Below, piece after piece: positions 3,051 to 45,649 of a stretch of 64,000 nucleotides of DNA (the first letter of the stretch is position 1; each line of letters starts with the position of its first letter). The stretch is from Schizochytrium sp. TIO01 (taxonomy: Eukaryota; Protista; Bigyra: Labyrinthulomycetes). The notes beneath the pieces were generated by a model. That model was not told the origin of the DNA. It did no database searches and saw nothing but the letters and a program-made list of their open reading frames with translations. The stretch covers positions 4,938,862-5,002,861 of the forward strand of contig SMSO01000025.1 in NCBI GenBank assembly GCA_004764695.1, written 5' to 3'. Both the position numbers and the translations under genes were made by a program.

Positions 3051-3565
3051 TACCCATGAGCTTAGCATCAGCCAGTAGAAGATAGATTATTCATGTTGGT
3101 GCAAGGAGCATGCATGATGAGTCTAATCGATATAGGTACTTAAGCATAGTAGAAGAGTGAGTGAATGAAGAAAAGAAAGAAAAGGGAAAAGAAGGGCTTT
3201 TTTTCTTCAGTGTTGCCATAGTATACCTATTCCCCTACCAAGTACTTTAAATGGCTTTCTTCTCCCTTTCTCCTCCTCCTTGACAGGGCTGCAACAGCAG
3301 CATATAACCAGCAAACTCCATAATCGGAGGCCACTGCGCTGAGGTCGGGAAAGTGGCAACCTGCACGAGCCTTGTCGGTGTTTTTGAAGAGGCGTACAAC
3401 GCGCCTGGACGAGACTAGTTCGAACTGGAACTCTACGAAGGATACGAAGGGCGCAAAAGCCATATTGAAGAGCTAAGAAGACATCCAACGAGGCACCCCG
3501 AGGAGCAGGAGCACGAACAACGGAGCAACAATCACCTCGCTGAAAACAATTGAACCTGCCAAAGC

Positions 3566-8467: not shown

Positions 8468-9286
8468 TTAGTCCTCCATCAAATGTTGATGCATTTGCAT
8501 ATGTTCATGCTGCTGTTGTTCAGCATGCCAGAGTTGCAAGTTGTCCTTGATAAGCTGTAGAATAAGAGAAGCATCTCGGTAGTCTTCGTCTGCCTCGATC
8601 TGATCCAGCTCACTGTTGGCGCCGTCAAGAGCAGTCTGTGCAATATCACGAGCTCTCCTGAAGTCCTGCATAATTTCATGGTAAAAAACTGAAAGGTTAA
8701 GTGCCAAGCCGAGACGAATGGTGTTAGCTGCAGGAAGGTCCTGCGCAATGCGTTGAGCTTCATTGTAAGACCTCAGGGCTTCTTCCGAAGCTTTGCTGCG
8801 GTGATCATTTTGTGTGAACTCAGCAAGGTAACGATAGTAGTCACCCATCATTTTGTGGCAAAACACTTGTGATTCAGGCGCCCCCGCCTGTTGCAGTAAG
8901 GTCTCACGCAAGAGAGATAGCGCCTCTGCGCAAGCGGCTTCAAGCTCAGATTCAAGTTGGCGAACGTAGTCGTGAAGTTCTTGGCCTTGCAGTTCTTTGA
9001 TCATGTTCATACTTGGGTTTGGTACAGACATATCGAAAGTATTCTGAGCGATCGCAGTCAAGGTACGCCAGCTTTGTCGAAGGACCCCAACGCGTTGTTT
9101 AAAGGCTACACTGAGCAAATTTCTTTCTTCCACGCTGAGTTCTTGCTTGTCGATTTGTGCCTTTTGTGCAAGGACTTTTACAAAGCGCACCATATCTTCC
9201 CAGCGCTCGGCATGTTCTGCAAGATGGGCGAACTTGACCAGGGCTTGCCGGCTCAGATGGTGTAGCTCCGCGCTATTGACTTGCAT
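8468..9286 (-). CDS. 14-3-3 protein (divergent paralogue)
   Basis: Motifs AEHAERWEDM, ELSVEERNLLSVAFK, KMMGDYYRYLAE, IRLGLALNLSVFYHEI and LILQLIKDNLQLW. First ATG at 9286; the ORF-track start at 9334 is TTG. Confidence 0.95.
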   Translation of the reverse strand: MQVNSAELHHLSRQALVKFAHLAEHAERWEDMVRFVKVLAQKAQIDKQELSVEERNLLSVAFKQRVGVLRQSWRTLTAIAQNTFDMSVPNPSMNMIKELQGQELHDYVRQLESELEAACAEALSLLRETLLQQAGAPESQVFCHKMMGDYYRYLAEFTQNDHRSKASEEALRSYNEAQRIAQDLPAANTIRLGLALNLSVFYHEIMQDFRRARDIAQTALDGANSELDQIEADEDYRDASLILQLIKDNLQLWHAEQQQHEHMQMHQHLMED

Positions 9287-24157: not shown

Positions 24158-26938
24158 ATGAGCAAGGGGGATCGAGGACAAACGCAGTACGTCGACGAGG
24201 ACGACGCGGAGTACGACAGAGAGTGGTTTGAAATGCTGGGACTTACACGCACCACGCAGGAAGAAGGGCTGGGTTTGTTGGAGGACGATGAATCGTGGCT
24301 TCAAACTGGCGTGAACAAGGATGACTTCGATTTGAATCAGGATAATTTGAATTCAAATGACCTGGGTGCAGGTATGTGGAATCTGGATAGTTCTTATTCA
24401 GACAAAGAGTTTGAAGAGCAAATCATGGCTCAGCGCACGGACGTGAACGAGTACGTAGAGGCTTCGGTGAGCAGCATGATGCTCAGAGTGGAAAAAGGCC
24501 GGTGGAGTGTGCAGAGTGTAAGCTACAATGAACCCATGAAAAAGGTCAGCTTAATGTTGACAGAGACAATTTCGGACTCACATCCGTACGATGACAAAAT
24601 GCTTTTGCAAGAAGACCGGGCGAGTAGCAACTTCATGAAGAACGTGGATGATATTTTCAAGGAACAGTCGGGATTACCTATCATGTGCAGTGCTAACATG
24701 GGGAATTTGGATGCCCTTCCGGAAGTTGAAGGTGAAACTCTTTCGACAGCCATTTCCCTCCTAAGTCTCCACGAAGTACCTGTGCTCCAACTCTCCGACG
24801 ATGAATTCAGGACTTGCATGTTTAATTTTAACGAAGCTGGTGCCGAAGACGGCTCCACAAATTTAAATCCTAGCGATTCAAATGACATTTACGGTTGCTA
24901 CCCTAGCACAAACCATCTTCCTACATCAAACAGCAAGGACCTGTTGATTTCTCTCCAAAGCTACGTAGGTGAAACCGATTCTGCTCCCTATTCCGAGAGT
25001 AGACTCAAGAAGTCCTTGTCGCAGCCCTCTCCTGGCATTGCATTATCGCGATGTGACGAGGATTCCAAAGGCCATTTTCAGAGCACGGAAAACCCACGCG
25101 TCGAGAAGCGCCCACTAGTGAATTCAATCCAAAATCCGGGGCCAACAAACACTTCTGTCATGACCATCAGTCCTTCCGCCAAGCGTGCCAAGCGGTATAA
25201 GCTTTCGAGTCATTCTCAGGAAATTTCTTTGATTGCTCCTGCAGAGCCCTCTGCGCAATCACACATTTCCTCAACAACTAAGACAGAAATTTCATCACGC
25301 CTTCCATCGCGCAGTTCGATCAACAAGAGACCTCGGGCTCCTTGGAGTTCTCCCCCCGATGGTTCTCCCTTTTCCAAAAAAGCAGGTCTCGGCCTTTGTT
25401 GCGATGGTGGCGTTATCAGTGGTGGTGCAGCTTTTCCTAGTTCTGATGAACTTCAGGATCTTCCAGCTCGTGGCAATTGTCTTGAAGTTCAAGCATGTAA
25501 TAATATTAAGGACCACAAAACGATCACGGCACAGCCACTCTCAGAAGCAGTTTTGGGGTTGCTGGCTTTGACGAGGCATGATTCTTCTTCCTCTAGTTCA
25601 CTTTCTTTTGATGTCAAGAGTGAGGACAATAGTACAAATGGTACCATTGGTAAGGGTATGTCTACCAAAGGCCAAGCCAATGTATCTCCCTTTTCTTCTC
25701 GTTGCACCAGCACTAGTAGTGATAGTGTTTCAAGCAAAAGTACTACTAATAGTACTATTGCGAGTATCGGTTGTCATACTACTGGCCATAGTAGTAGCAC
25801 TAGTTTTAGTGAAAGAATGAATATTGCAAGGAATGGTGCCTCTCCAGGCGCCATGAAATCGTATACTGCTACTATTACTGCTGGTGAGGGTGAGAAAACC
25901 ACTCTTTCTGGCGATAAATTTTCAATTAATAGGCCTAGTAGTGTGAGTAGTTTCAAGCCTTTCGAAGGAAGCCTCGGAGGTGAGGACAAGAAAAGTGCAA
26001 GGGCGGGGCTGCAACAACCCGAGGTCCTGGCGCGAAACGAGACTTGCGAAATTCCTCAAGCTGCAACGACATGGGCAGCTCGAAATAGTGACTCGGGATT
26101 GCGGTCCGCTGATGAGACAGATGGTTATCTTGTCCAACGAGATGCTGTGCTTAAATTTCAAGATAAATTTGACCAAGAAGAAAAAGACTTAGGCGGAGAT
26201 TCTGATCAAAGATTGAAAGAATCTGCTGCACCTGCTGAAGGAATTGACAAAGAGGAAGAGTTCCAACAGAAAGACTTCAACCTTGTACTTGCTGCCGCCC
26301 AAGTTGTCGCAGCTCTACAACATGATGAAAACAGAACAAACACTTCAAAGGCGGTCCGAGCAGACATTGACAACTGGCTGGAAGCCGAGGAACTTGAATG
26401 TCGTGGAGCCGTGGCTCCAACATCGTCAACGCCTGGAGCCACTGCTTTGATGGATATTAATCCTATCGTTTCTAGTGCCACTTTTACAACGAATAGTATT
26501 CTTTGTGTCGGAGATAATGCGCATGGTGGTTATAATCCTTTTCATAGCCATCTTACTGAAGCATCAGTAAATGAAAAAAAGATCGATAGTGGTGAGGCAC
26601 CAGGGCTCAATCAATTAATTTCTTATGCCGACACCGACGATAGGCTTTGTAACACTCGCGGAGCCGCCGCGGAGCGCAGGGAGCACACGGAGCGCGCGGT
26701 GATGGCCCCGGCTCTACACGGTCCACAGTCAGACCACCATCAAATCCATCTCTCCGAAGAAGAACACAACTTGGAACAGGAACGCGGATTATGCTCTCTG
26801 CGTACCTCTTCTCAGTATAAGAGGCGCCGAATTCTCAAGAAGGGGTCGCTGTCAGTGGAGACGCCCCGCAACGAGAATGCATCCGCAGTCCCTAACTCTG
26901 TTTCCCAATCTCATGCTTCATATCGCTTTATCATATAA
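24158..26938 (+). CDS. Hypothetical, largely disordered Ser-rich protein
   Basis: 926-codon uninterrupted ORF beginning at ATG; no recognisable domain. Confidence 0.6.
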   Translation: MSKGDRGQTQYVDEDDAEYDREWFEMLGLTRTTQEEGLGLLEDDESWLQTGVNKDDFDLNQDNLNSNDLGAGMWNLDSSYSDKEFEEQIMAQRTDVNEYVEASVSSMMLRVEKGRWSVQSVSYNEPMKKVSLMLTETISDSHPYDDKMLLQEDRASSNFMKNVDDIFKEQSGLPIMCSANMGNLDALPEVEGETLSTAISLLSLHEVPVLQLSDDEFRTCMFNFNEAGAEDGSTNLNPSDSNDIYGCYPSTNHLPTSNSKDLLISLQSYVGETDSAPYSESRLKKSLSQPSPGIALSRCDEDSKGHFQSTENPRVEKRPLVNSIQNPGPTNTSVMTISPSAKRAKRYKLSSHSQEISLIAPAEPSAQSHISSTTKTEISSRLPSRSSINKRPRAPWSSPPDGSPFSKKAGLGLCCDGGVISGGAAFPSSDELQDLPARGNCLEVQACNNIKDHKTITAQPLSEAVLGLLALTRHDSSSSSSLSFDVKSEDNSTNGTIGKGMSTKGQANVSPFSSRCTSTSSDSVSSKSTTNSTIASIGCHTTGHSSSTSFSERMNIARNGASPGAMKSYTATITAGEGEKTTLSGDKFSINRPSSVSSFKPFEGSLGGEDKKSARAGLQQPEVLARNETCEIPQAATTWAARNSDSGLRSADETDGYLVQRDAVLKFQDKFDQEEKDLGGDSDQRLKESAAPAEGIDKEEEFQQKDFNLVLAAAQVVAALQHDENRTNTSKAVRADIDNWLEAEELECRGAVAPTSSTPGATALMDINPIVSSATFTTNSILCVGDNAHGGYNPFHSHLTEASVNEKKIDSGEAPGLNQLISYADTDDRLCNTRGAAAERREHTERAVMAPALHGPQSDHHQIHLSEEEHNLEQERGLCSLRTSSQYKRRRILKKGSLSVETPRNENASAVPNSVSQSHASYRFII

Positions 26939-28215: not shown

Positions 28216-29059
28216 CGCCTCCACTCATTCACGCCCTTTCTTCTCCAGCAGACCCCTTTGGCGATATTGTCGAGGTAGGTGCTTCATCATCATCCGAGGG
28301 CGACGCGCGGAGGCGGGCGGGGCGGGCGGCCAGGCGCTGCTCGGGCGCAGGCACTACGCTGCACGCACATCTAGACCTGCAGCGGCGGGCTGCAGTCCGC
28401 GGTCTACAGGACAGGTGCGGCAGCATGGAGCTCATTCCCGCTCGCATGTGGCCAGTCTGCCAACCAACCAACCACCTTCTCTCCTCTCTCATACATAGAC
28501 ATACATGGCGAGGCCAATGCACATGCGTGCGGAAGGCCGAGGGCAGGAGGGAAGCGGATAGCGAGGAGCAGACAGGACACCGCGAGGAGTAGCGGCAGCC
28601 GTGTATCATCCATCACCTGGGAAGTGGAGCAGAGACCAGATTCGATTGAACCATTGGTTAAAAGAGAAGTTTTCTTTTTCTTTTCTGCTTGCTGTATCCA
28701 TCTGGCTAAGGCTCTGCTACCCAGTTGACTAGGAGTACATGGATTTCTCTACTTTCTCTGGGAGACTATCTTTCCGTTTGCTTCTTTGGAGTGGTCTTTC
28801 TGCCTCTTCTCTCCCCGAATGCCCAATAGGCTCAAACGTATGCAAACAAACATGTCATGGTGGAGACGAGGAGGAAGGGAGAGAACACTCGCCTTGCGCG
28901 CCCATTTTTGTTTGAAGGTTTTGATTTGAAGAATGGTCAACTAACTGTATACTTTGTGAACAAATTGCGTCTTTGATATTGATAACAACAGGGATTTTGT
29001 ACCGGAACCGCAGCGGATTTAGTAGTTGAGCCCCTCGGCTCTACAAATCGCAAAGCAAG

Positions 29060-31660
29060 ATGGTGAACTTTACGATCGACCAGTTGCGGGAGATGATGAA
29101 CTACCCCGACAACATCCGCTCCATGAGTGTCATTGCCCACGTCGATCACGGCAAGTCCACTCTTACCGACTCCCTTGTGTCCAAGGCCGGTATTATTGCC
29201 GCCAAGAACGCCGGTGATGCTCGTTTCACTGATACCCGTGAGGATGAGCAGGAGCGTGGTGTGACCATCAAGTCCACCGGTATCTCCATGTTCTTCAAGT
29301 ACGACAAGGAGAAGTACTGGACTGACGATGCTGGCAAGGTCGTCGAGGGTGAGGCCACCGTCGGTGCTGAGGGTGGTGAGAAGAACTCTTACATGATCAA
29401 CCTCATCGACTCCCCCGGCCACGTCGATTTCTCCTCCGAGGTGACCGCCGCTCTCCGTATCACTGATGGTGCCCTCGTCGTTGTTGACTGTATCGAGGGT
29501 GTCTGTGTGCAGACCGAGACCGTGCTCCGTCAGGCTATGGCTGAGCGCATCAAGCCCGTCCTCATGGTCAACAAGCTTGACCGTGCCTTCCTTGAGCTCA
29601 AGATGGACCCCGAAGAGGCTTACCAGAACTTCCGTAAGGCCGTCGAGTCCGTCAACGTCGTCATCGCCCCCTACGAGAGCGAGGACCCCGTTGCCGAGTA
29701 CAAGGCCGGTGGTCTTGGCCCCGTCCAGGTCGACCCTGCTGAGGGTACCGTCGCCTTCGGTTCTGGTCTCCAGCAGTGGGGTTTCACCCTCAAGAAGTTC
29801 GCCGTCATGTACGCCGACAAGTTCGGTGTCAAGCCGGAGGACATGATGCGCCGTCTCTGGGGTGACAACTTCCTTGACTCCGCCTCCAAGAAGTGGAAGA
29901 AGGGTAACGCCCACGGCAACCTCAACGCCGGCCTCAAGCGTGCCTTCGTTCAGTTCATCCTCGAGCCTATCCAGCAGCTCTGCCAGGCCATCATGGACGA
30001 GAAGGACAAGAAGGTCCAGAAGATGCTCAAGGCTCTTGACATCCAGCTCAAGAAGGACCAGCTTGAGCTCAAGGGTAAGCCCCTCATCAAGCCCGTCATG
30101 CAGAAGTGGCTCCCCGCCGCTGATGCCATCCTCGAGATGATGGTCATGCACCTTCCCTCCCCCCGCCGTGCCCAGTCCTACCGTGTGGACGTCCTCTACG
30201 ACGGTCCCCTCGACGACGAGGGTGCCCAGGCCATCCGCCAGTGTAACCGTGAGTCCCCCCTCATGATGTTCGTTTCCAAGATGGTTCCCACCTCCGACAA
30301 GGGTCGCTTCTACGCCTTCGGTCGTGTCTTCGCCGGTACCATCTCTACTGGCCAGAAGGTCCGCATCTACGGCCCCAACTACGAGGTTGGCAAGAAGAAG
30401 GACCTCTACCTCAAGAGCATCCAGCGTACCCTCATCCAGATGGGTCGCTACGTCGAGCAGGTCGCCGATGTGCCCGCCGGTAACAACGCCTGCCTCGTCG
30501 GTGTCGATCAGTACCTTCTTAAGACCGGTACCATCACCACCATTGAGTCTGCCCACTCTTTCCGTCAGATGAAGTACTCCGTGTCCCCCGTCGTGCGTGT
30601 CGCCGTCGATGTCAAGAACCCCCAGGATCTTCCCAAGCTCGTTGAGGGTCTCAAGCGTCTCGCCAAGTCTGACCCCCTCGTTCTCTGCCAGACTGAGGAG
30701 TCCGGTGAGCACATCGTTGCCGGTGCCGGTGAGTTGCACCTCGAGATTTGCCTTAAGGATCTTGCCGATGACTTCATGGGTGGTGCCCCCATCAAGATCT
30801 CTGACCCCGTCGTCTCGTACCGTGAGACCGTCACTGAGGAGTCCTCCATGGTCTGCTTGTCCAAGTCCGTGAACAAGCACAACCGTCTCTTCTGTAAGGC
30901 TATGCCGATGCCCGAGGGTGTCGATGTCGCCATTGAGGAGGGCAAGGTTGGCCCCCGTGACGAGTTCAAGGCTCGTGCCCGCATCCTCGCCGACGACTTC
31001 GGCCTCGATGTTGGTGAGATGCGTAAGATCTGGGCCTTCGGCCCTGAGGGCACTGGCCCCAACCTTCTCGTCGACGCCACCAAGGGTGTCCAGTACCTTA
31101 ACGAGATCAAGGACCACTGTAACTCCGGCTTCCAGTGGGCCACCAAGGAGGGCCCCATGTGTGACGAGGTCTGCCGTGGTGTTATCATGCGTGTTCTCGA
31201 TGTCACCCTCCACGCTGATGCCATTCACCGTGGTGCCGGTCAGATCCTCCCCACCATGCGCCGCGTGACCTACGCTTCCATCCTCACTGCCTCCCCCACT
31301 CTCCTCGAGCCCATCTACCTTGCCGATATCTCCTGCCCCCAGGACTCCACCGGTGGTATCTACGGTGTTCTCACCACCCGCCGCGGCCACGTGTTCGCTG
31401 AGGAGGTCCGCCACGGATCCCCCATCGTCCAGCTTAAGGCTTACCTTCCCGTCTCCGAGTCCTTCGGTTTCACCGGCGCTCTCCGTGCCGCCACCGGTGG
31501 TAAGGCCTTCCCCCAGAACTCCTTCTCCCACTGGCAGGCTCTTAACACTGACCCTCTCACCGCTGGCACCAAGGCCAACGAGATTGTCCTCGGCATCCGC
31601 GAGCGCAAGGGTCTTAAGGACGCCATCCCGACTTACGACAAGTTCTACGACAAGCTCTAA
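29060..31660 (+). CDS. EEF2: Eukaryotic translation elongation factor 2
   Basis: MVNFTIDQ start, [36 protein letters not shown] and the diphthamide loop [12 protein letters not shown]. Extreme C/T-ending codon bias. Confidence 0.99.
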
Positions 31661-33038
31661 GTGCATACCTTTTACTAAACCTTTTAAGAGCATACGCTAT
31701 CAAAACTGAGATAAAATTTGCTGTCTTGCTGTTCCGTTGTTTGTTTTGCGATTACCAATTTATTGATTGCAGTATGAGATTAGTTCCTTCTTTGATCGTC
31801 AAAAGTAGCAAGTGATTTTCATGTGGTTTTTGCTGAAAATGGCCTTAAGATTCCGGTCCGAATGCAAAGCTTGGAAGAATCACGCATCCTTCTTACGGAA
31901 GGCTTCGCAAATATGTCACTCAGTTTACGATTTTTTTCTTCCTGGTTAGATTTAAGTGAAGTTGAGGCACTTAGAGCCAATGTAGACTTCTTCGATATTT
32001 TGAGAATCTTTTTTGTTTGGCTGGTTTTCGGATAACAGAAAATAACGCTGGTCGAATTAAAAGGTCTCTCCATTTATATTAATAAGGTGGATTATAAATT
32101 TTTGTGTATAGATTTAGAAAAGTAAAAACGAAGAAAAGTTATTGTATGGAAGATTAGATATAGTTTGAAATCCCGTTTTTCGATGGCAACCGGTGCCGCG
32201 CTTGTGTTTAGCATTTTTTTATTTCTCAAAATCTTCTTAGTTAAAGAAATGAAATGAAATGAAAAACAGCTAACTTGAAGAACTATTTGCGAATGTAGAG
32301 AGATTCAGGTAGATTTATATATAAGTAATCGAAGAGATGCATCATTTAATGTTTACTTTCATCTTTAAAATGAAATTTCAAATGAAGTTTAGGACTTTTA
32401 TCTCATGTTAATATTTACAATCAACTGCTAGAGTGGGAGTGGACTTTGAATTTAAGCTAAGATCAATGGATCATTTTACAAAAAGCGTCTTTCTTGTAAA
32501 AGCTAAAGAAACACGATTTGCATAGCTTGGTGGCTTCCTGAGTGAAAATTAAAGATGAAATGAATCGAGCATGACATGATCTTGCTACTGATCTTGTGAG
32601 TCTACTTTAGAGTAAAGCAAAATTCTATTCTTCTGAAGTGGTTAAAGGCTGCTCAAACTTGTTTATTTATCTACTCTTGACCATGCAGCACTGCGAGTAA
32701 TAGAAAATTGAAGGATGCATGAGGTAGCATAATGTATTGTAAACATGTTAGTTTTGAACCTTTTCCATCGATGTAGCGTGATTAGATCTTCCTGTTCATT
32801 AGCGCATATGTGGAAAATGGCTCTTTTGTGACGTTTAGGGACAAATATCACGTTTTAAAAAAAATTTTAATCTTTTGAAAGAAGGTCCACAGAAGGTTGG
32901 AGCAGCAAGCGTCGCTTGCAGGACCAATTCGCTGTTTTCGCGCTAGATTTGTATTGGCGTGCGAGGTTAGGTGCTCGCTCCAACTGCTGCGCTAGCCTGC
33001 CTTCTCTTCTTTTCACGTATCTCAGGTCTCGGCTACCA

Positions 33039-38327: not shown

Positions 38328-40607
38328 TTAATTGAGCAGAGGCACATGCTCAAAAAGTTCAGCATAAGCAACCTTTGCGGCCTTCTCCGGGAGTGATTTA
38401 ATTGCCTCCTGCAGCGCAGGCGATTCAGGGGAAAAGTTGCCGGGTAAGCAACGATACAGAGAATCCCGGATTTCCTCTAAGCTGTTGTAATATTCTTCGA
38501 TTTCATTCTCAAACATGTCCTCCTCTTCTTCATCCTCGTCGACGGGCGCATCATCGGGCTCTTGTTCAGCGAGTTGGACCAAAGCACCTAGCAATTGCTT
38601 AAGAACAGTCTGCAAGACAGGTTGAAGGATGTCGGTGGGAGCGTAGGCCAGAGCACCAGCAAGCATGTATCCAAAATCCATCTCACCGCCCTCCTCACTC
38701 TCGTCATCGTCATCTTCACTAGCTTCGTCTTTTGCCTGGTCGTTACTCTCAGAAGTCTTCTCAGACAGGAGCTTGCACTGTGCAGCCATCACTTCCCAGG
38801 GCATTCCAGCTGGAGCCGGAGGAAATTTAAGAAGGTTCCACGCAACTCCAGCGGCGGCAGGCTCACGATTGGCGATCTTTTCGCTGAGAATTTCGGGTCC
38901 CAGAGCCTTGTGAAGAGCCTTAACTCCTTTCCGTAAGCTAGAGAATCTAAGCAATAGCTCATCATAGTCAGGCTCACCCCAACGCTTCACCAGCCAGACA
39001 GCCAAAAATTCAATCTCATCAGAGCCCAAAGATTTGGGGTCTTCTTCGTCACCGGCTTCCAATTCTTCTTCATCAGCCATGGTCTCAATCAATGTTTCAA
39101 GGTACTCAATGGGGGGATCAAGTCGCACGTTGATCTCTTGCGTGAGCTCACTGCCATCGTGCAGGAAGTATTTGCCGACGAACGAGGAACCCTCTTCCTC
39201 GTCCTCATCATCTTCGTCGTCAATTTCAAAACTGGTACCATCTTCGCTCATAAAGCGCATCTGGGCCGCCATATCGCGTTTGGTGTTGTTTTGCTTCTTC
39301 TTGTCACGTGCAGCCTGCTGAACAGACCTCTTCTGGGCACCAGTGGCACCCTTAGGCTCCTCCACGCGGCTCCAGACCTTGGGCACCTTGGGCGGCACAG
39401 CGCGGTCCAGCTCAGTCTTATCAATGGGATCGACAGAGGTCCATTGACGCATGGGCTCTTGCCATGTGGCTTCAGAGTCCTTCGAAGGAGGCATCATGTT
39501 GGCGCACGGTTTCTTCATGTCGCACTGAGTGCGAGAGACCTTGGAATCCCAGAATCCTACCATGAAGGTCAATCTTGCAGCTCCAGAAGCGGCCATGCCA
39601 AGTCGAGGCACGACACCATGTAGAAGGCGTCCATCAAATACTGCTAATCTGTTTCGTTGCGGATGCAGCAGCCAACCAGAGGTCTCCTCGAGGTCCTCGG
39701 CATTCTCATACTCGCGGTCTGTCACGAGCGTCGGCGCTGCTGACCCGACATCCACATAGAACACTGTGGAGAACACAGGGTGGTGCAAGCCATGTCCCGA
39801 CTGCAGCCTGTGCTCGTCGGCATCCCAATGAAGCTGGTGGCCGCTCATGGCATCGCGCTTGTGGACCCACCATTCAGCGTACTGGACGTCGGCGGGGACA
39901 CCTCCAAATGCGCTGCTATTGTCTCCCAGCGTCTTCTTCAGAGCCGGCCAAAGGTGATCTTTGATGAGAGCTTCCGCAGCTACCGTGGGAGTTTCATCCA
40001 GAGCAAAGGAGTGCGAGAAATATCCCGAGTCACCATACTTGTGTTCCGCCCAGTACGGTGCATCTGCATCGAAGTGCTTTGCAATGTCCTGCAAGAACTG
40101 CTCAGGGACCACCGCATCCACCGACCAGACCGGCGGTGCAAGGGACAATTCTTTTGGGAGACGGCTTGGCGAGTTCGCTGCGAAAACGCTCTCATGTAGC
40201 CGCCAAGAATATCCAAGGCGGCTCAAGTACGCGTCGGCGCGCCTTGGCTCGTCCCTTGCCAGAAGTGCCAAGGCCAGGAGGTATGCAGCATCTTCGTGTC
40301 CTGAGGACCCAGTCTTTGACGTAACTACGCGCTCCAGGTCGCAAAGAGCCGCATCGCTGTGCTGAGGCGCATAACGAAGCTTGAGCTCGGCCAGCAGCAC
40401 AGTGGCCTCGCCGCAAGCAGGGTCCTCACGGAGGGCCCGAAGACAGAGACGAGAAACACGTCCCCAACCGCGTCGGCCAAGAAGATCATCGTAGGTACGA
40501 GCGCGCTCCACGAGACGGCATGCACGAGCAGCACGGAGACGCTGCAAACGGGCGCGCTCCCGACGAGCGGAGTTGGGAAGAGTCGATGAGGCCTTGCGTT
40601 TCACCAT
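38328..40607 (-). CDS. 2-oxoglutarate/Fe(II)-dependent oxygenase-like protein with helical N-terminal and acidic C-terminal regions
   Basis: EWWVH..., GHQLHWD (HxD), STVFYV, NRLAVFDGRLLHGV (distal His) and RLTFMVGFW (2OG-binding Arg) occur in DSBH order. Confidence 0.75.
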   Translation of the reverse strand: MVKRKASSTLPNSARRERARLQRLRAARACRLVERARTYDDLLGRRGWGRVSRLCLRALREDPACGEATVLLAELKLRYAPQHSDAALCDLERVVTSKTGSSGHEDAAYLLALALLARDEPRRADAYLSRLGYSWRLHESVFAANSPSRLPKELSLAPPVWSVDAVVPEQFLQDIAKHFDADAPYWAEHKYGDSGYFSHSFALDETPTVAAEALIKDHLWPALKKTLGDNSSAFGGVPADVQYAEWWVHKRDAMSGHQLHWDADEHRLQSGHGLHHPVFSTVFYVDVGSAAPTLVTDREYENAEDLEETSGWLLHPQRNRLAVFDGRLLHGVVPRLGMAASGAARLTFMVGFWDSKVSRTQCDMKKPCANMMPPSKDSEATWQEPMRQWTSVDPIDKTELDRAVPPKVPKVWSRVEEPKGATGAQKRSVQQAARDKKKQNNTKRDMAAQMRFMSEDGTSFEIDDEDDEDEEEGSSFVGKYFLHDGSELTQEINVRLDPPIEYLETLIETMADEEELEAGDEEDPKSLGSDEIEFLAVWLVKRWGEPDYDELLLRFSSLRKGVKALHKALGPEILSEKIANREPAAAGVAWNLLKFPPAPAGMPWEVMAAQCKLLSEKTSESNDQAKDEASEDDDDESEEGGEMDFGYMLAGALAYAPTDILQPVLQTVLKQLLGALVQLAEQEPDDAPVDEDEEEEDMFENEIEEYYNSLEEIRDSLYRCLPGNFSPESPALQEAIKSLPEKAAKVAYAELFEHVPLLN

Positions 40608-41639
40608 GTTATGTTGTGCGAGGAACTTCAGAAACAGCCACTTGCGAGCTTGTCAAGGAGGTGAAAGACCACGAGTGGTGGTTTCCACGAAGAGCAAGTT
40701 CGCACAGAGAGCTAGCACCTTAGACAGAGGTCCGCCAAACAGACAGACAATCAGTCGCCCAGTCGCAGAGCGAGAACTGGGTTCTGATCTGATGTCTCTG
40801 GGTTTTGTACACCAATGGATCCTCACTCTCTTCTTCATAGCGTAATGTATGGACGTTTCTACCACTACTCTAGAGGCTACTAGCTTTCGCTCCAAGGTGA
40901 GAAAAGAGACTTATAAAGAGGGCTATTCAATTCTGGAGATCTTGCTTTTGCTAATATGGAGGCTCCTCAATTGATAGGTTCTCAAAAATATTGTGGCTTT
41001 TGGGGCTAAAGGATTACATGTATGCACTCATGCAGGATTGGTGAGCGCGAGACAGGAGATAGACACGCCGTGCATAAAGAGCAGATATGAGGAGGCGCTG
41101 AATGGGCGACATGTGAGTGGAGGTGTTCTGGAAAAGTCCTGTCGCTAGTACTTGTCGGCACTCGCTATTATAGTTTTTGTCGAATTCTATTGCCTTTTCT
41201 TAAATGAGTTGAATGGGGCCTGTTCAAGATAATTTAAGCAATTGGAAGAAGTTGAAGGCCTTCAGAAGTACAGACAATCGTTCCCGACCACAAAATAACA
41301 AATAAGGCGAGTGAGAGACTTCCTGAGAATTTTATACAGCCTCATCATTTTGCTATTGCAAAATCAAACAGCAACAACAACAGTTTTATATAAGGGGTTG
41401 ATTCAGCTAAAGCAATGCAATATCATTGTAAAGGAGAAGGCGTTGATGAAGAAAGGAAAGATTAAAGTATTTCTCAATATCCGAAGACGGACCAGAACCA
41501 CTTGTCTCGAAAGATTAGATCTTGGTGTACAAATTTTGTTATATTTATATACTACATTTTGCTTACCTTAGACTAAATTAAAGGATATATTATCGCTATG
41601 GACCACACATGAAGAGAAAAGAGATTTATATTTACAAAA

Positions 41640-41760
41640 GTCCATCTCACTTAGATTTCAACCTGTAAAATCTGCACGGCTTGGATGTCCTACGGTGACT
41701 AAGTGGAGCTAAGACTCAATCGCGTATTTAAAACTAACTCACGACTCAATGACAATTATT
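41640..41760 (-). ncRNA. Candidate omegaRNA scaffold / element right end
   Basis: Lies directly 3' of the nuclease stop. Inverted repeats CACTTAG (41648-41654)/CTAAGTG (41699-41705) and AGATTT (41653-41658)/AAATCT (41668-41673); direct repeat GACTCAAT at 41713 and 41743. Confidence 0.35.
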
Positions 41761-42209
41761 AAATCATGTCCTTGGATAGGTAGCGCAAAAGGACGCCTCC
41801 GGCAGCGTGAATATCACGATTGGCTACGTGCTTGCATTTTGGGAGGATACTTGAATACCTTTGGATGTCTCTCTGTCACTAGTCAGAGGTACTGAGTAGA
41901 GATCTTTTAAGTTAAATTCTAGAGCCAAAACAAACACACATGTGGATGTTCCGAGCTTGTCGTGGACGGTATCATTTGCATTGCATCGCTTGTAAGTGTA
42001 ATCCTCTCAGCAAATAACCAGTTCACATCGCTGGCAGAGGAAAAGATCGGCTTCGTGAATGAGCACTTGTCGGGAGCCAATGAATGAGGCATCTTTCGAG
42101 CTGTCTTGATTTTGATCCCACCTGATTAACTTGTTGAGGTCTCCAAAAATTTAGGCAAACACCGTAGTTTTCACAGAGCCAAAGTGCAAGCTGGCAGTGA
42201 ATCTCGGTA
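41759..42209 (-). pseudogene. Fanzor2/TnpB-like RNA-guided nuclease remnant (C-terminal RuvC-II / Zn-finger / RuvC-III part)
   Basis: Joining frames gives, in order: TEIHCQLALWLCENYGVCL, ETS, IKIKTARKM, RQVLIHEADLF..RCELVIC*EDYTYKRCNANDTVHDKLGTS, [insert], KVFKYP, PKCKHVANRDIHAAGGVLLRYLSKDMI* (stop at 41759-41761). Confidence 0.8.
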
Positions 42210-42520
42210 GTCCATTAGGGGACGCAAGTCCGGCCTGTTGAAGTCGACCCTTCTACCGAAGTCTTTGTAGACGATTGAGGTATCTGGATAGGCACGCTGG
42301 AGGTCACCAATCCGGCATTTGAAATTCCCTTGTTGCTTTGCGGAGGACACGATGGCGTAAGTAATGGTATGGTCAGTGCTGCGTTGCTTGCGGCCGTCGG
42401 AATAAATCGCAGCCACAGATGCCCTTAACGTCGCTACTTGCATATATGCGATTGCCTCCGAGGGAGCACTCGAAGGGGATTTGCCGAGGCGCCAAACCTC
42501 TGGTTGAAGTACTCTGATAG
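42210..42520 (-). pseudogene. tnpA: IS607-type TnpA serine recombinase remnant (N-terminal HTH plus start of catalytic domain)
   Basis: IPFECSLGGNRIYASSDVK (MerR-like HTH wing, GG.R.Y), then a frameshift into ITYAIVSSAKQQGNFKCRIGDLQRAYPDTSIVYKDFGRRVDFNRPDLRPLMD. This matches the IS607 pattern YARVSS.KQ..DL.RQ...L...YP......D.GSG.NF.R.GL..L.D. Confidence 0.82.
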
Positions 42521-43268
42521 TTCGAGTTGACAGTTTGTTTCACTTGTAGTGTTCGGACCTCGTTCCTTGGCTATTCCATTTTTTTACCTTACCATCGCTC
42601 CTCAGCAAAGACCTGCATACTCACTATAACATCTATCATTCATATGGAGCAGTCGCTGCCATTTCGAGGTTGTGCAAGTCCCAACGTTTTCAATGCTGCA
42701 AAAGTCGCCTATTCGTTCACTGCGGCGCTTCTACAAGCTCGCCCCTGTGTTTGGTATTTCGGCGCCACCCTCCACCCTAGTGGCGGCCTAAGTGCCTCTA
42801 CGCGGTGAGTTTAGTATGGGCAAGATTTGTCGTCGTGGAGCACATCGAAGGAGAAGACTCATCGAAGAAGCAGAAGAGGCGTGGAGGGCTCTCTCGAGAG
42901 GCCTTCGGGCGGGAGGAGGGCAGAGGGAGGGCGACGCAGCAGAGGACACGTCACGTGAAATGAGGCGGGCGCAGAGAAGAGATGGCAGAATAACGGCGAA
43001 TGAGCGAGATGCGCGAAGTGAGAAGAAAGCGTTAGGCAAGGCAAGCGCCTCCCTCTTAGCACGCGATAAGTAAGTGGTAGGAGGTCTGGAGAGGCGCTCT
43101 TTCTCTATTTCCCACTTCAAAGATAAAGAGGAAATAACTTTAAGTTTGATGTTTTTACTTTATATTTCACTCATAGAGAGAGAGAGAGAGAGAGAGGTAG
43201 CTAAGAGCTGCCTACCTGTTTGGGTAGGGGTGGGGTAGTTTGCTAGAGAAGTCGAACTTGAACTTAAA

Positions 43269-43300
<32 letters not shown>

Positions 43301-43558
43301 GAGAAAGAGAGAAAGAAACAAACTTCTGAAGAAAAGGAATGTTTTGTGTTTCTGTCTAAGCACCCTAGTGCCCAGTCCTAGGGAGGCGGGTCTAGGGAAA
43401 TGCAGTAGAAGTGGCGTGTCATGCTAACGAGAAGAAGAAGAAGAAGAAGAAGAAGCACAGTGACAGAACATCGAGAGAAGAAAGAGCAGCGAGAAGCAAA
43501 CAGGCTTCTCCCCCCTCCACTTCTTTCAAGCCTCCGCTCTCCAATTCACTCTTACACG

Positions 43559-45649
43559 ATGGATAGAGGCCGAGGCAGAGGCCGAGGCCGTGGCAGTGGC
43601 AGAAGCTTCGCTTCCAACGGAGGCGGCCGCTCTGGCCAGGGTCATGGTAACAACAACAATAACAACTACAACAACAGCAACAACAACAACAACCGCAGCA
43701 ATGGCAATAACAACTACAACAACAGCAACAACAGCAGCAACAACAATAGTGCCAGCAACGGCAATAGCAACGGGTACAGCAACGGGTACAGCAACAACAA
43801 CAACCATAACAATGGCAGTCGGAGCAATTCCCGCCACGGTACCAGCAACGGAGGAATGAGCCGCGACGCTCGCAAGGATGTGCGTCGCAAGCGGCAGGCT
43901 GCTGCTGTGCAGAAGAAGGCAGACGAGGAAACCGACTTCTTTTTCTCGTGCGTGCGCCGTGCACAGCGATTGCCTGCCTCCACCCCTCCTCTGAGCCAAG
44001 GTGGCAAGCCTCAGGGCCGTCAGAACCCTGTCCGTAAACCGCAGCGTTCCGAGGAGGCCGTTTTCGGTGCCAAGGCAATCTGCTCAGGCATTGACTTCAA
44101 TAAGTACGACGACATCCAGGTTGAGTGCAGCGCTTCCGATATTGTAGCCCTCGAGAGGTTTTCCGACGTCGCAGACGCCCTTGGGCCTGAGGTGCTGCGG
44201 TCTGTGGAGCGCATGAACTACGCCACGCCTACGCCTATTCAAAGGTATTCTATCCCAAGCGCTCTCAAAGGCCGCGACCTCATGTGCTCTGCGCAAACCG
44301 GCAGCGGTAAGACTGCATCTTTCCTGATCCCTACAATTGCTGGAATGCTGCGCTCTAAGGAGCTGATGGAACCCTCCGGAAGGCGGCCCGGCGAGGAGGG
44401 CGTTGTGCACCCCGCAGCAGTAGTGCTGGCGCCCACAAGAGAACTTGCTTCACAAATTGATGTAGAGGCTGCCAAGCTTTGCCACTGGACACCGATTGTT
44501 CCACTCTGTGTTTACGGAGGAGCACCCGCTCGGTCTCAACTCGAGGCACTCGCGCAGGCTGGACCACACCCCCTCCTACTCACCGCCACGCCAGGACGCC
44601 TCATCGACTTTGTGGACAGAGGCATCATTAAGCTCTCTGGGGTTGGATTCCTTGTACTCGACGAAGCAGACCGCATGCTCGATATGGGATTCGAGCCGCA
44701 GGTGCGCCAGATCGTACAGAAGAGGGACATGCCGCCCCCATCGAAGCGAGCTACCCTCATGTTTAGCGCAACCTTTCCCGAACCCATTCAGAAGTTGGCG
44801 ACAGACTTCCTGCGGCCAGGGTACACGTGGATCGCGGTGGGCGTCGTTGGGTCCACGACGAGTTCCATTACGCAGAGACTCTTGGAGTCTAGCATGGATC
44901 GCAACAAAAAGATGCAGCTGCTCGCAGAGCAGCTCCGCGAGATTGAGGGTCGTACCCTTGTCTTCGTGCGCATGAAGCGGTCAGCACATCAGGTGAAAAG
45001 ACGCCTTGAACGTGACTTCGACATCAAGGCTGGTGAAATTCATGGCGACCGCTCACAGGCACAGCGCGAAGCAGCGCTTGATTCCTTCCGTGATGGTAAG
45101 ATCGCTGTACTGATTGCCACAAATGTTGCTGCACGTGGACTTGATATCCCTAATGTTACCCACGTCGTTAACTTTGACTTGCCGACCGCAGAGGCTGATT
45201 TTCCGGATTACGTTCACCGTGTGGGACGCACAGGCCGTGCAGGCCACCGTGGTGTTGCCACGAGCTTTTACGTGCCAGGTTTTGACCCCAAGCAGGGCAA
45301 CGGCAAGATCGCTCCCATGTTGCTTCAATTCCTCGAGGACGCAGACCAGGAAATCCCGGAATGGTTCCTTGCGCTACCAGAGCTGAAAGGCGTTGGTGCT
45401 GCTAGAGCTCGAAGTGCTGCTGCGGGTCCTCCAAACCCGCCCGCGTCAGCAGAGAATAACTCGCGCAATGGCCATAACAACAATAACAACGGTAGTAATG
45501 GAGGCAGCCGGGGTGGCGGCCGAGGAGGCCGAGGAGGCCGTGGACGTGGCCGTGGTGGCCGTGGTGGATCTCAATCGCAGTTCCGCGATCATCGCCGAGG
45601 CGGCGGCGGCGGCCGTGGTGGCCATCGTCGTGAAGCCGCTACTGCATAA
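43559..45649 (+). CDS. Ded1/DDX3-subfamily DEAD-box RNA helicase with RGG and Asn-rich termini
   Basis: GIDFNKYDDI.VE, Q motif PTPIQ, AQTGSGKT, PTRELA, TPGRL, DEADRMLDMGFEPQ, SAT, HGDRSQ.QRE, ARGLD and YVHRVGRTGRAG. Likely start is ATG 43559 (MDRGRGRG); an in-frame ATG also exists at 43421. Confidence 0.93.
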   Translation: MDRGRGRGRGRGSGRSFASNGGGRSGQGHGNNNNNNYNNSNNNNNRSNGNNNYNNSNNSSNNNSASNGNSNGYSNGYSNNNNHNNGSRSNSRHGTSNGGMSRDARKDVRRKRQAAAVQKKADEETDFFFSCVRRAQRLPASTPPLSQGGKPQGRQNPVRKPQRSEEAVFGAKAICSGIDFNKYDDIQVECSASDIVALERFSDVADALGPEVLRSVERMNYATPTPIQRYSIPSALKGRDLMCSAQTGSGKTASFLIPTIAGMLRSKELMEPSGRRPGEEGVVHPAAVVLAPTRELASQIDVEAAKLCHWTPIVPLCVYGGAPARSQLEALAQAGPHPLLLTATPGRLIDFVDRGIIKLSGVGFLVLDEADRMLDMGFEPQVRQIVQKRDMPPPSKRATLMFSATFPEPIQKLATDFLRPGYTWIAVGVVGSTTSSITQRLLESSMDRNKKMQLLAEQLREIEGRTLVFVRMKRSAHQVKRRLERDFDIKAGEIHGDRSQAQREAALDSFRDGKIAVLIATNVAARGLDIPNVTHVVNFDLPTAEADFPDYVHRVGRTGRAGHRGVATSFYVPGFDPKQGNGKIAPMLLQFLEDADQEIPEWFLALPELKGVGAARARSAAAGPPNPPASAENNSRNGHNNNNNGSNGGSRGGGRGGRGGRGRGRGGRGGSQSQFRDHRRGGGGGRGGHRREAATA

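Follow-up and report, generated by a model that had tools for sequence, protein, structure and literature searches.

The window analysed here, a stretch of 64,000 nucleotides, carries on its minus strand the remains of an IS607-TnpA/Fanzor2 element, lying between two host genes. The features of the element and its two neighbours are listed below; L002 is a viral locus, and P0095 and P0103 are TnpA relatives.

38328-40607, minus strand: flanking host open reading frame of 759 amino acids, with no family in a Pfam scan
41648-42620, minus strand: whole relic, an internally deleted IS607-TnpA/Fanzor2 element delimited by the depth profile, its left end uncertain at about 42560-42630
41648-41745, minus strand: omega-RNA-like tail with a short conserved stem and the right-end motif TAAGTG (41653-41648), from a tail model of relatives
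41759-41861, minus strand: end of the Fanzor2 nuclease with KVFK, the RuvC-III RD, LLRYL and a stop (alignment to L002; PF07282)
41862-41949, no strand assigned: 74-nt insertion (41869-41942) between two 7-nt repeat copies, particular to this locus and splitting the zinc finger
41944-42205, minus strand: C-terminal part of Fanzor2 (bridge helix, RuvC-II region, first zinc-finger half) with several frameshifts (alignment to L002, frameshift-aware alignment)
42207-42212, minus strand: deletion joint, with L002 residue 449 aligning at 42205 and L002 W99 just upstream of the joint
42210-42416, minus strand: front half of the TnpA serine-recombinase domain (NF033518; TnpA profile)
42406-42511, minus strand: N-terminal winged helix of TnpA, split by frameshifts (tblastn pieces 42459-42406; frameshift-aware alignment to P0095 and P0103)
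43421-45649, plus strand: flanking host DEAD-box helicase (PF00270, E=2e-42)

The neighbours are eukaryotic, with long unbroken frames, and the window also holds Paf1, RRP36 and 14-3-3 genes. Of 15 window proteins that were looked up, six have entries in the protein collection used, some of these also in MMETSP, EukProt and JGI sets. The host is likely a thraustochytrid; a GC content of 45% would agree with Aurantiochytrium. A divergent 14-3-3 protein with a Gln/His-rich tail is encoded at 8468-9286 (minus strand), and a 926-aa open reading frame at 24158-26938 (plus strand) has no Pfam family. An antisense open frame of 918 codons (28937-31693, minus strand) shadows the gene at 29060-31660 (plus strand), which we take to be elongation factor 2; the antisense frame is likely an effect of codon bias.

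Six-frame translation of the relic recovered the whole string of motifs listed by the original prediction, on the minus strand, in the order given and spread over three frames:

42459-42442, minus strand: wing GGNRIY
42362-42345, minus strand: YAIVSS
42205-42164, minus strand: EIHCQLALWLCENY
42107-42090, minus strand: KTARKM
42072-41944, minus strand: RQVLIHEA to HDKLGTS
41861-41850, minus strand: KVFK
about 41836-41777, minus strand: CKHVANRDIHAA..VLLRYL

The nucleophile serine, said to be retained, is indeed kept at 42350-42348. Two details needed correction: the frame given as ending in VLLRYL* continues as LLRYLSKDMI before it stops, and the open frame over tnpA, described as a 90-aa fragment, measures 122 codons from stop to stop. 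The proposed span of 41640..42520 was right in place but not in its limits, as the element reaches about 42560-42630 at one end and about 41648 at the other.

The proposed identity, an IS607 TnpA together with a Fanzor2-type nuclease, is borne out by comparison with relatives and by frameshift-aware scores. Family models by themselves gave weak matches: a 57-aa resolvase piece matched the IS607 transposase model NF033518 (E=0.0076, far short of the curated cut-off), and the last nuclease piece matched Pfam PF07282 (E=0.041). Searched against 1.84 billion representative proteins, the resolvase piece gave five hits: the decayed relatives P0002, P0004 and P0005, the intact TnpA P0006, and P0003, apparently a repeat protein of no relation, which was not retained. 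A profile of 50 TnpA relatives, partly circular in that its seed came from the search with the relic's own resolvase piece, returned the relic as its sole included match in six frames of the window (E=2e-10). The Fanzor2 of L002, which was chosen via its tnpA neighbour and is independent of the nuclease pieces in the window, aligned to the relic in three collinear pieces (E=1.4e-12; 310 ORFs tried). Among 182 Fanzor2 queries, 120 of which came from a search with L002, 89 matched the element and none matched elsewhere in the window. The frameshift-aware translated search that the original prediction had called for gave a Fanzor score of 159, where 39 kilobases of control sequence reached 43 at most; with P0095 the TnpA score was 116, where 29 control kilobases reached no more than 47. 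Several other searches were negative. A Pfam scan of the three whole minus-strand frames returned no family, none of four candidates from a word-seeded protein search with the 122-aa frame was significant, and a viral-contig scan with the same frame, or with P0006 alone, confirmed nothing. Window pieces matched nothing relevant in the PDB, where phmmer gave unrelated weak hits only, and a degenerate pattern derived from the relic found no stretch in metagenome contigs and none in viral contigs. A TnpA tree does not place the relic, two unrelated bacterial sequences being drawn into its group. The locus holds a real, dead IS607/Fanzor2 relic.

Both domains that define an IS607 TnpA, the winged helix and the serine-recombinase domain, survive as remnants, and the tnpB-type gene lies 3' of tnpA on the same strand, as in the IS607 gene order. 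The catalytic set of TnpA is incomplete: Ser is kept, the YARVS Arg that 50 of 50 relatives share is replaced by Ile, DLxRQ is altered, and D-R-L-x-R and helix E are deleted. This lowers the case for an active enzyme, not for derivation from IS607. Relative to L002, about 347 codons (~1 kb) are absent, namely the back half of tnpA and the REC, WED and RuvC-I parts of the nuclease, including the region of the DPG motif, which is present in the best intact matches. The joint is in frame for the nuclease, whose last ~120 codons are retained after it. A stop codon at 42009-42007 interrupts the RuvC-II region. In the alignments, the Glu that opens EDYTYKRC (42006) falls on the Glu conserved in L002 and P0185. 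Because this RuvC-II Glu (42006-42004) is shifted to six residues before the zinc finger, the nuclease is of the Fanzor/pro-Fanzor type; its partner gene, an IS607 TnpA instead of a canonical eukaryotic transposon carrier, sets it apart from Fanzor1. The C4 zinc finger is not intact, with two of four cysteines kept (the second and third are lost, the fourth is kept), and the RD is kept. Stops, frameshifts, lost catalytic residues and missing enzyme cores all agree with the earlier description of a dead copy. Where the relic has 41839-41942, other copies have about 20 letters, and depth is ~1x at 41870 and 41921. An intron was considered for the 74-nt insert and set aside, since other copies are without it at the DNA level and it is flanked by 7-nt direct repeats; a retro-copy origin was likewise set aside, there being no A tail beyond the right end.

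Beyond the nuclease lies the omega-RNA-like tail. A tail model built from 19 relatives, with the window excluded, ranked 41745-41642 best in the 64 kb (20.8 bits, E ~0.01, next 12.3), the E-value being rough and the seeds having been picked by a motif noticed after viewing the relic's tail. The tails of the 19 relatives share a 4-bp long-range pairing and a short stem, 92% paired, with the structure read from these same sequences. The relic's own tail folded no better than shuffles (z=-0.55) and had no match in an Rfam scan. The right-end motif TAAGTG is followed by AGAT and then GG, the nearest GG lying 5 nt beyond the motif, and the sequence of a guide would come from the adjoining host flank. 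In this decayed copy the IS607 GG termini and the left end were not identified, and no inverted pair joins both ends among the 25 longest listed, the left end not being fixed. A promoter scan stayed at chance level, with a method not suited to eukaryotes.

Twenty of the 24 listed sequencing runs, from 10 studies, contain the stretch or part of it, and four of the 24 were aligned at 80% identity. No RNA run was listed among the 24 as containing it. In all four, 240-251 contigs per run aligned to the stretch, 139-148 of them at less than 90% identity. Summed depth was 5-59x that of the flank in bins 41631-42598, highest over the 3' part of the element (43-59x), and 1.1x in 42599-42719; flank bins beyond the element stood at ~1x apart from one skipped repeat. 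A microsatellite-rich stretch at 43165-43326, on the upstream side of the helicase gene, was skipped in all four runs. Summed contig depth is not copy number, for which the 16-19 contigs over position 42260 give a floor. In each of the four runs single contigs bridge the right end and other single contigs the left end, none spanning the 3.6 kb among the matches listed. Because both ends are bridged in four of four runs, the insertion at this locus is common to them. The original prediction had placed the element in a eukaryotic nuclear genome and had named a break with the flanking host DNA as grounds for rejection; the bridged ends and the cellular neighbour genes uphold that placement. Its description of the element was right in identity; absent from it were the loss of ~1 kb, the large number of copies, the tail resembling an omega-RNA and the two-frame layout described below.

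Contigs from other loci stop at 41647 and at 42552-42557. Contigs aligning at 42158-42502 and 42167-42384 cross the joint gap-free at ~80% identity, some other-locus contigs leave the relic at the joint and continue into upstream nuclease-like sequence, and other copies skip different internal parts. The decayed proteins P0002, P0004 and P0005 carry the same tnpA/nuclease fusion as the relic joint. Recurrence of one deletion joint at several loci makes it likely that the deleted form was spread in trans. The simplest reading of these alignments would be an old family that comprises longer copies as well as deleted derivatives, with amplification of one derivative. Independent insertion sites are suggested by the depth profile. 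Intact relatives elsewhere in the genome, as supposed in the original prediction, may exist, since other copies extend into nuclease sequence upstream of the joint, but no intact host copy was seen among the copies matched.

We consider it probable that the relic is a dead, internally deleted IS607/Fanzor2 copy, one of many, and that the deleted form spread via transposase from intact copies. The best intact matches, however, sit on viral and environmental contigs, and Fanzor2 is described as enriched in giant viruses in the available text of one survey (PMC10530073), as would suit copies that arrived in giant-virus or mirusvirus DNA carrying the element and never transposed in the nucleus. 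Against such an arrival, which we regard as unlikely, the neighbouring ORFs with an assigned family are cellular genes, depth rises over the element only, and the relic-derived pattern had no matches in viral contigs. One deleted copy could also have multiplied by segmental duplication, or by the spread of an unrelated repeat, with no transposase involved. Eukaryotic IS607 fragments often share flanks, and transposition was not concluded for them in the sections of PMC3673617 that we cite; here, in contrast, the flanks are single-copy on both sides at >=80% identity in four of four runs, and duplication is highly improbable.

The retained tail and right end, together with the depth maximum over the 3' part, recall ghost loci, for which working scaffolds are described in the text available of PMC10432273. 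As a ghost locus, the relic would make no protein and would supply omega-RNA with a host-flank guide to an intact Fanzor2 elsewhere. However, the tail gives no folding signal, differences between runs are equally frequent in the element (18 in 1401) and the flank (22 in 1489; run X13), and no intact nuclease was seen, which leaves this role distinctly improbable. As for chance motifs, or a stretch that is a contaminant or a mis-join, the empty Pfam scan of whole frames and the unrelated phmmer hits could be read that way, but both are refuted by frameshift-aware scores above controls and by the bridging contigs, and the TnpA profile and L002 matches also speak against them; we give them practically no weight.

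The relatives of the relic share an unusual arrangement of the two genes. Among the viral loci L001-L079, which were found through TnpA, 62 of 79 have a downstream nuclease, and in 59 of these 62 (a few loci being near-duplicates) the open nuclease frame extends over 385-859 nt of tnpA, in every case in +1. The last 140 tnpA codons are free of +1 stops in 61 of the 62 loci, where ~10 stops would be expected. In the 17 loci that have no nuclease call the mean is 17 such stops, although four of these loci have none and most are AT-rich. When viral loci were chosen by their nuclease, many of them repeating the first set, the overlap was found in 46 of 77 (5 shorter, 4 with tnpA on the opposite strand, 22 without tnpA), and nuclease-chosen metagenomic loci showed it in 49 of 80 (8 other, 23 without tnpA). 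Prokaryotic controls with DPG and the shifted Glu had no +1 stops in tnpA. A +1 overlap of 583-586 nt is present in the cyanophage L086 and the cyanobacterial plasmid L105, and the cyanophage record has an annotated gene of 561 aa whose start lies 10 nt inside the tnpA match. Canonical IS607 controls carried 3-22 +1 stops, with overlaps mostly below 70 nt. Two codon pairs that create a +1 stop were used in 2/157 and 0/407 chances in 61 overlapped genes versus 147/203 and 50/180 in 18 canonical ones, and one +1 Trp was kept in 55/60 overlapped versus 2/18 canonical genes. Judged from these sequences, the +1 layout appears to separate Fanzor2/pro-Fanzor elements from canonical IS607.

Some loci depart from this pattern or merit separate mention. 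In the viral loci L172, L175, L176 and L183 tnpA lies on the opposite strand. In two of them, L172 and L183, the N-terminus of the nuclease still has the PFW motif, so that the overprinted domain can persist once the overlap is lost. At L105:2500-3139 the tnpA frame is open only from 2687 and the +1 frame from 2556, and the record starts TnpB at 3084, so that the N-terminal part is omitted. Eleven AT-rich viral contigs (L015, L033, L040, L043, L050, L051, L054, L063, L069, L072 and L074) carry an IS607-like tnpA with 19-41 +1 stops and no downstream nuclease, and these genes are possibly resolvases kept by the virus. The elements on two bacterial-MAG contigs, L080 and L081, are closer to the viral/eukaryotic type than to bacterial IS607, possibly through mis-binning. 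In the fungus Diversispora epigaea, contigs of 0.66-1.3 Mb bear the annotated close TnpA relatives P0023 and P0081.

The +1 frame over the relic's tnpA scored 19.1 bits against the relatives' profile, a value matched by 1 of 500 synonymous recodings. It aligns to the N-terminal region of Fanzor2 (profile positions 57-109), and its last residues, P*W, fall on the conserved PFW/PYW site. The +1 stop count of the relic alone is not significant (1 observed, 3.1 expected, P=0.11). The parent of the relic was probably dual-coding, and the relic appears to keep this two-frame signature. A +1 ATG stands within 16 nt of the tnpA ATG in 12/14 giant-virus MAG loci and 12/35 others, a count that set aside 13 of the 62 loci and is biased upward by taking the shortest spacing; leaky scanning is therefore offered as a hypothesis. 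Giant-virus MAG loci commonly show a pair of start codons spaced 4-13 nt. In the relic, ATGs at 42595 and 42579, with a spacing of 16 nt, fit a two-start layout, yet both frames stop within three codons, and we therefore left them out of the argument.

Returning to spread by transposase, the parent element would have been ~1.9 kb long. A single transcript would have carried tnpA together with the beginning of Fanzor2, written in +1 on the same nucleotides, and its 3' end would have served as the omega-RNA scaffold, with a guide taken from the adjoining host sequence. The excision, insertion and homing steps are borrowed here from bacterial IS607, as presented in the available portions of PMC13565253 and PMC6188088: TnpA would move the element out of one site and into another as double-stranded DNA, and the emptied donor site would be cleaved by the nuclease, so that its repair would bring the element back. 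A deletion that took out both enzyme cores and spared both ends would have left a non-autonomous element, which transposase from presumed intact copies could have moved to new sites, and the relic would then have decayed through stops, frameshifts and the 74-nt insertion. On a wider scale, we tentatively suggest as a serious possibility that a bacterial-type IS607 transposed to dozens or hundreds of thraustochytrid nuclear sites, non-autonomous deleted forms included. This may have been possible as its lineage had the nuclease start inside tnpA in the +1 frame, with two starts a few bases apart from which a scanning eukaryotic ribosome could translate a single mRNA into both proteins. The overprinted stretch would then be the origin of the Fanzor2 N-terminal domain and older than the jump to eukaryotes.

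The relic itself offers no new enzyme. Its value lies in a many-copy family in what is likely a new host group, together with the two-frame signature it seems to have kept. Whether IS607 transposes inside eukaryotic genomes was left open by a 2013 survey, as far as its consulted sections go (PMC3673617), and the many-copy family, the shared deleted form and the many public runs of this host make the question testable; the family may also point to an intact Fanzor2. With the relic, the two-frame layout enters a nuclear genome. This layout might account for how the Fanzor2 N-terminal domain arose, and it is relevant to the question of why the Fanzor2/pro-Fanzor clade crossed into eukaryotes.

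The literature covered, which did not extend to Repbase, ISfinder, subscription papers or bioRxiv supplements, held no listing of Fanzor or IS607 in thraustochytrids and none of a long +1 overlap. Thraustochytrid names are absent from the supplements consulted of PMC10530073, PMC10711439 and PMC10432273, whose tables may list accessions without names, and the consulted text of PMC3673617 describes IS607 merely as two overlapping ORFs. The closest known systems are the eukaryotic IS607EU elements with Fanzor2, in which, going by the text available (PMC3627910, PMC3673617, PMC13565253), a winged helix and serine recombinase are followed by a Fanzor2-type nuclease, as in the relic. Terminal inverted repeats were not seen in them, nor, among the 25 longest pairs listed, at the ends of the decayed relic, and fragments are known in stramenopile nuclear genomes. 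They were reported at 1-22 copies per genome, and the survey text left transposition undecided (PMC3673617). In the present case the aligned contigs number in the hundreds, and several loci have a deleted form in common. Fanzor ghost loci, as described in the accessible part of PMC10432273, are protein-less copies that keep their ends and the omega-RNA region, as the relic appears to do; the described ones are bounded by inverted repeats and make RNA, whereas the relic, known from DNA alone, keeps gene remnants. Pro-Fanzors, cyanobacterial IS607 TnpB proteins with DPG and the shifted Glu in the available text of bioRxiv 10.1101/2023.08.09.552727 and PMC10711439, have the same active-site layout but are prokaryotic, while the relic lies among eukaryotic host genes. 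The Mimivirus Fanzor2 ApmFz2 (PDB 9B0L; PMC11832414) is the top PDB match of the relatives' profile (E=1e-76) and has the shifted Glu, the zinc finger and the RuvC-III Asp, whereas the relic is broken and without RuvC-I, REC and WED. The consulted text on ApmFz2 calls its N-terminal domain unique and makes no link to tnpA, and reports that Asn82/Ser83, within residues 77-120, contact the RNA pseudoknot (PMC11832414). In the relatives' profile, ApmFz2 residues 77-120 align to the part that the relatives encode inside tnpA.
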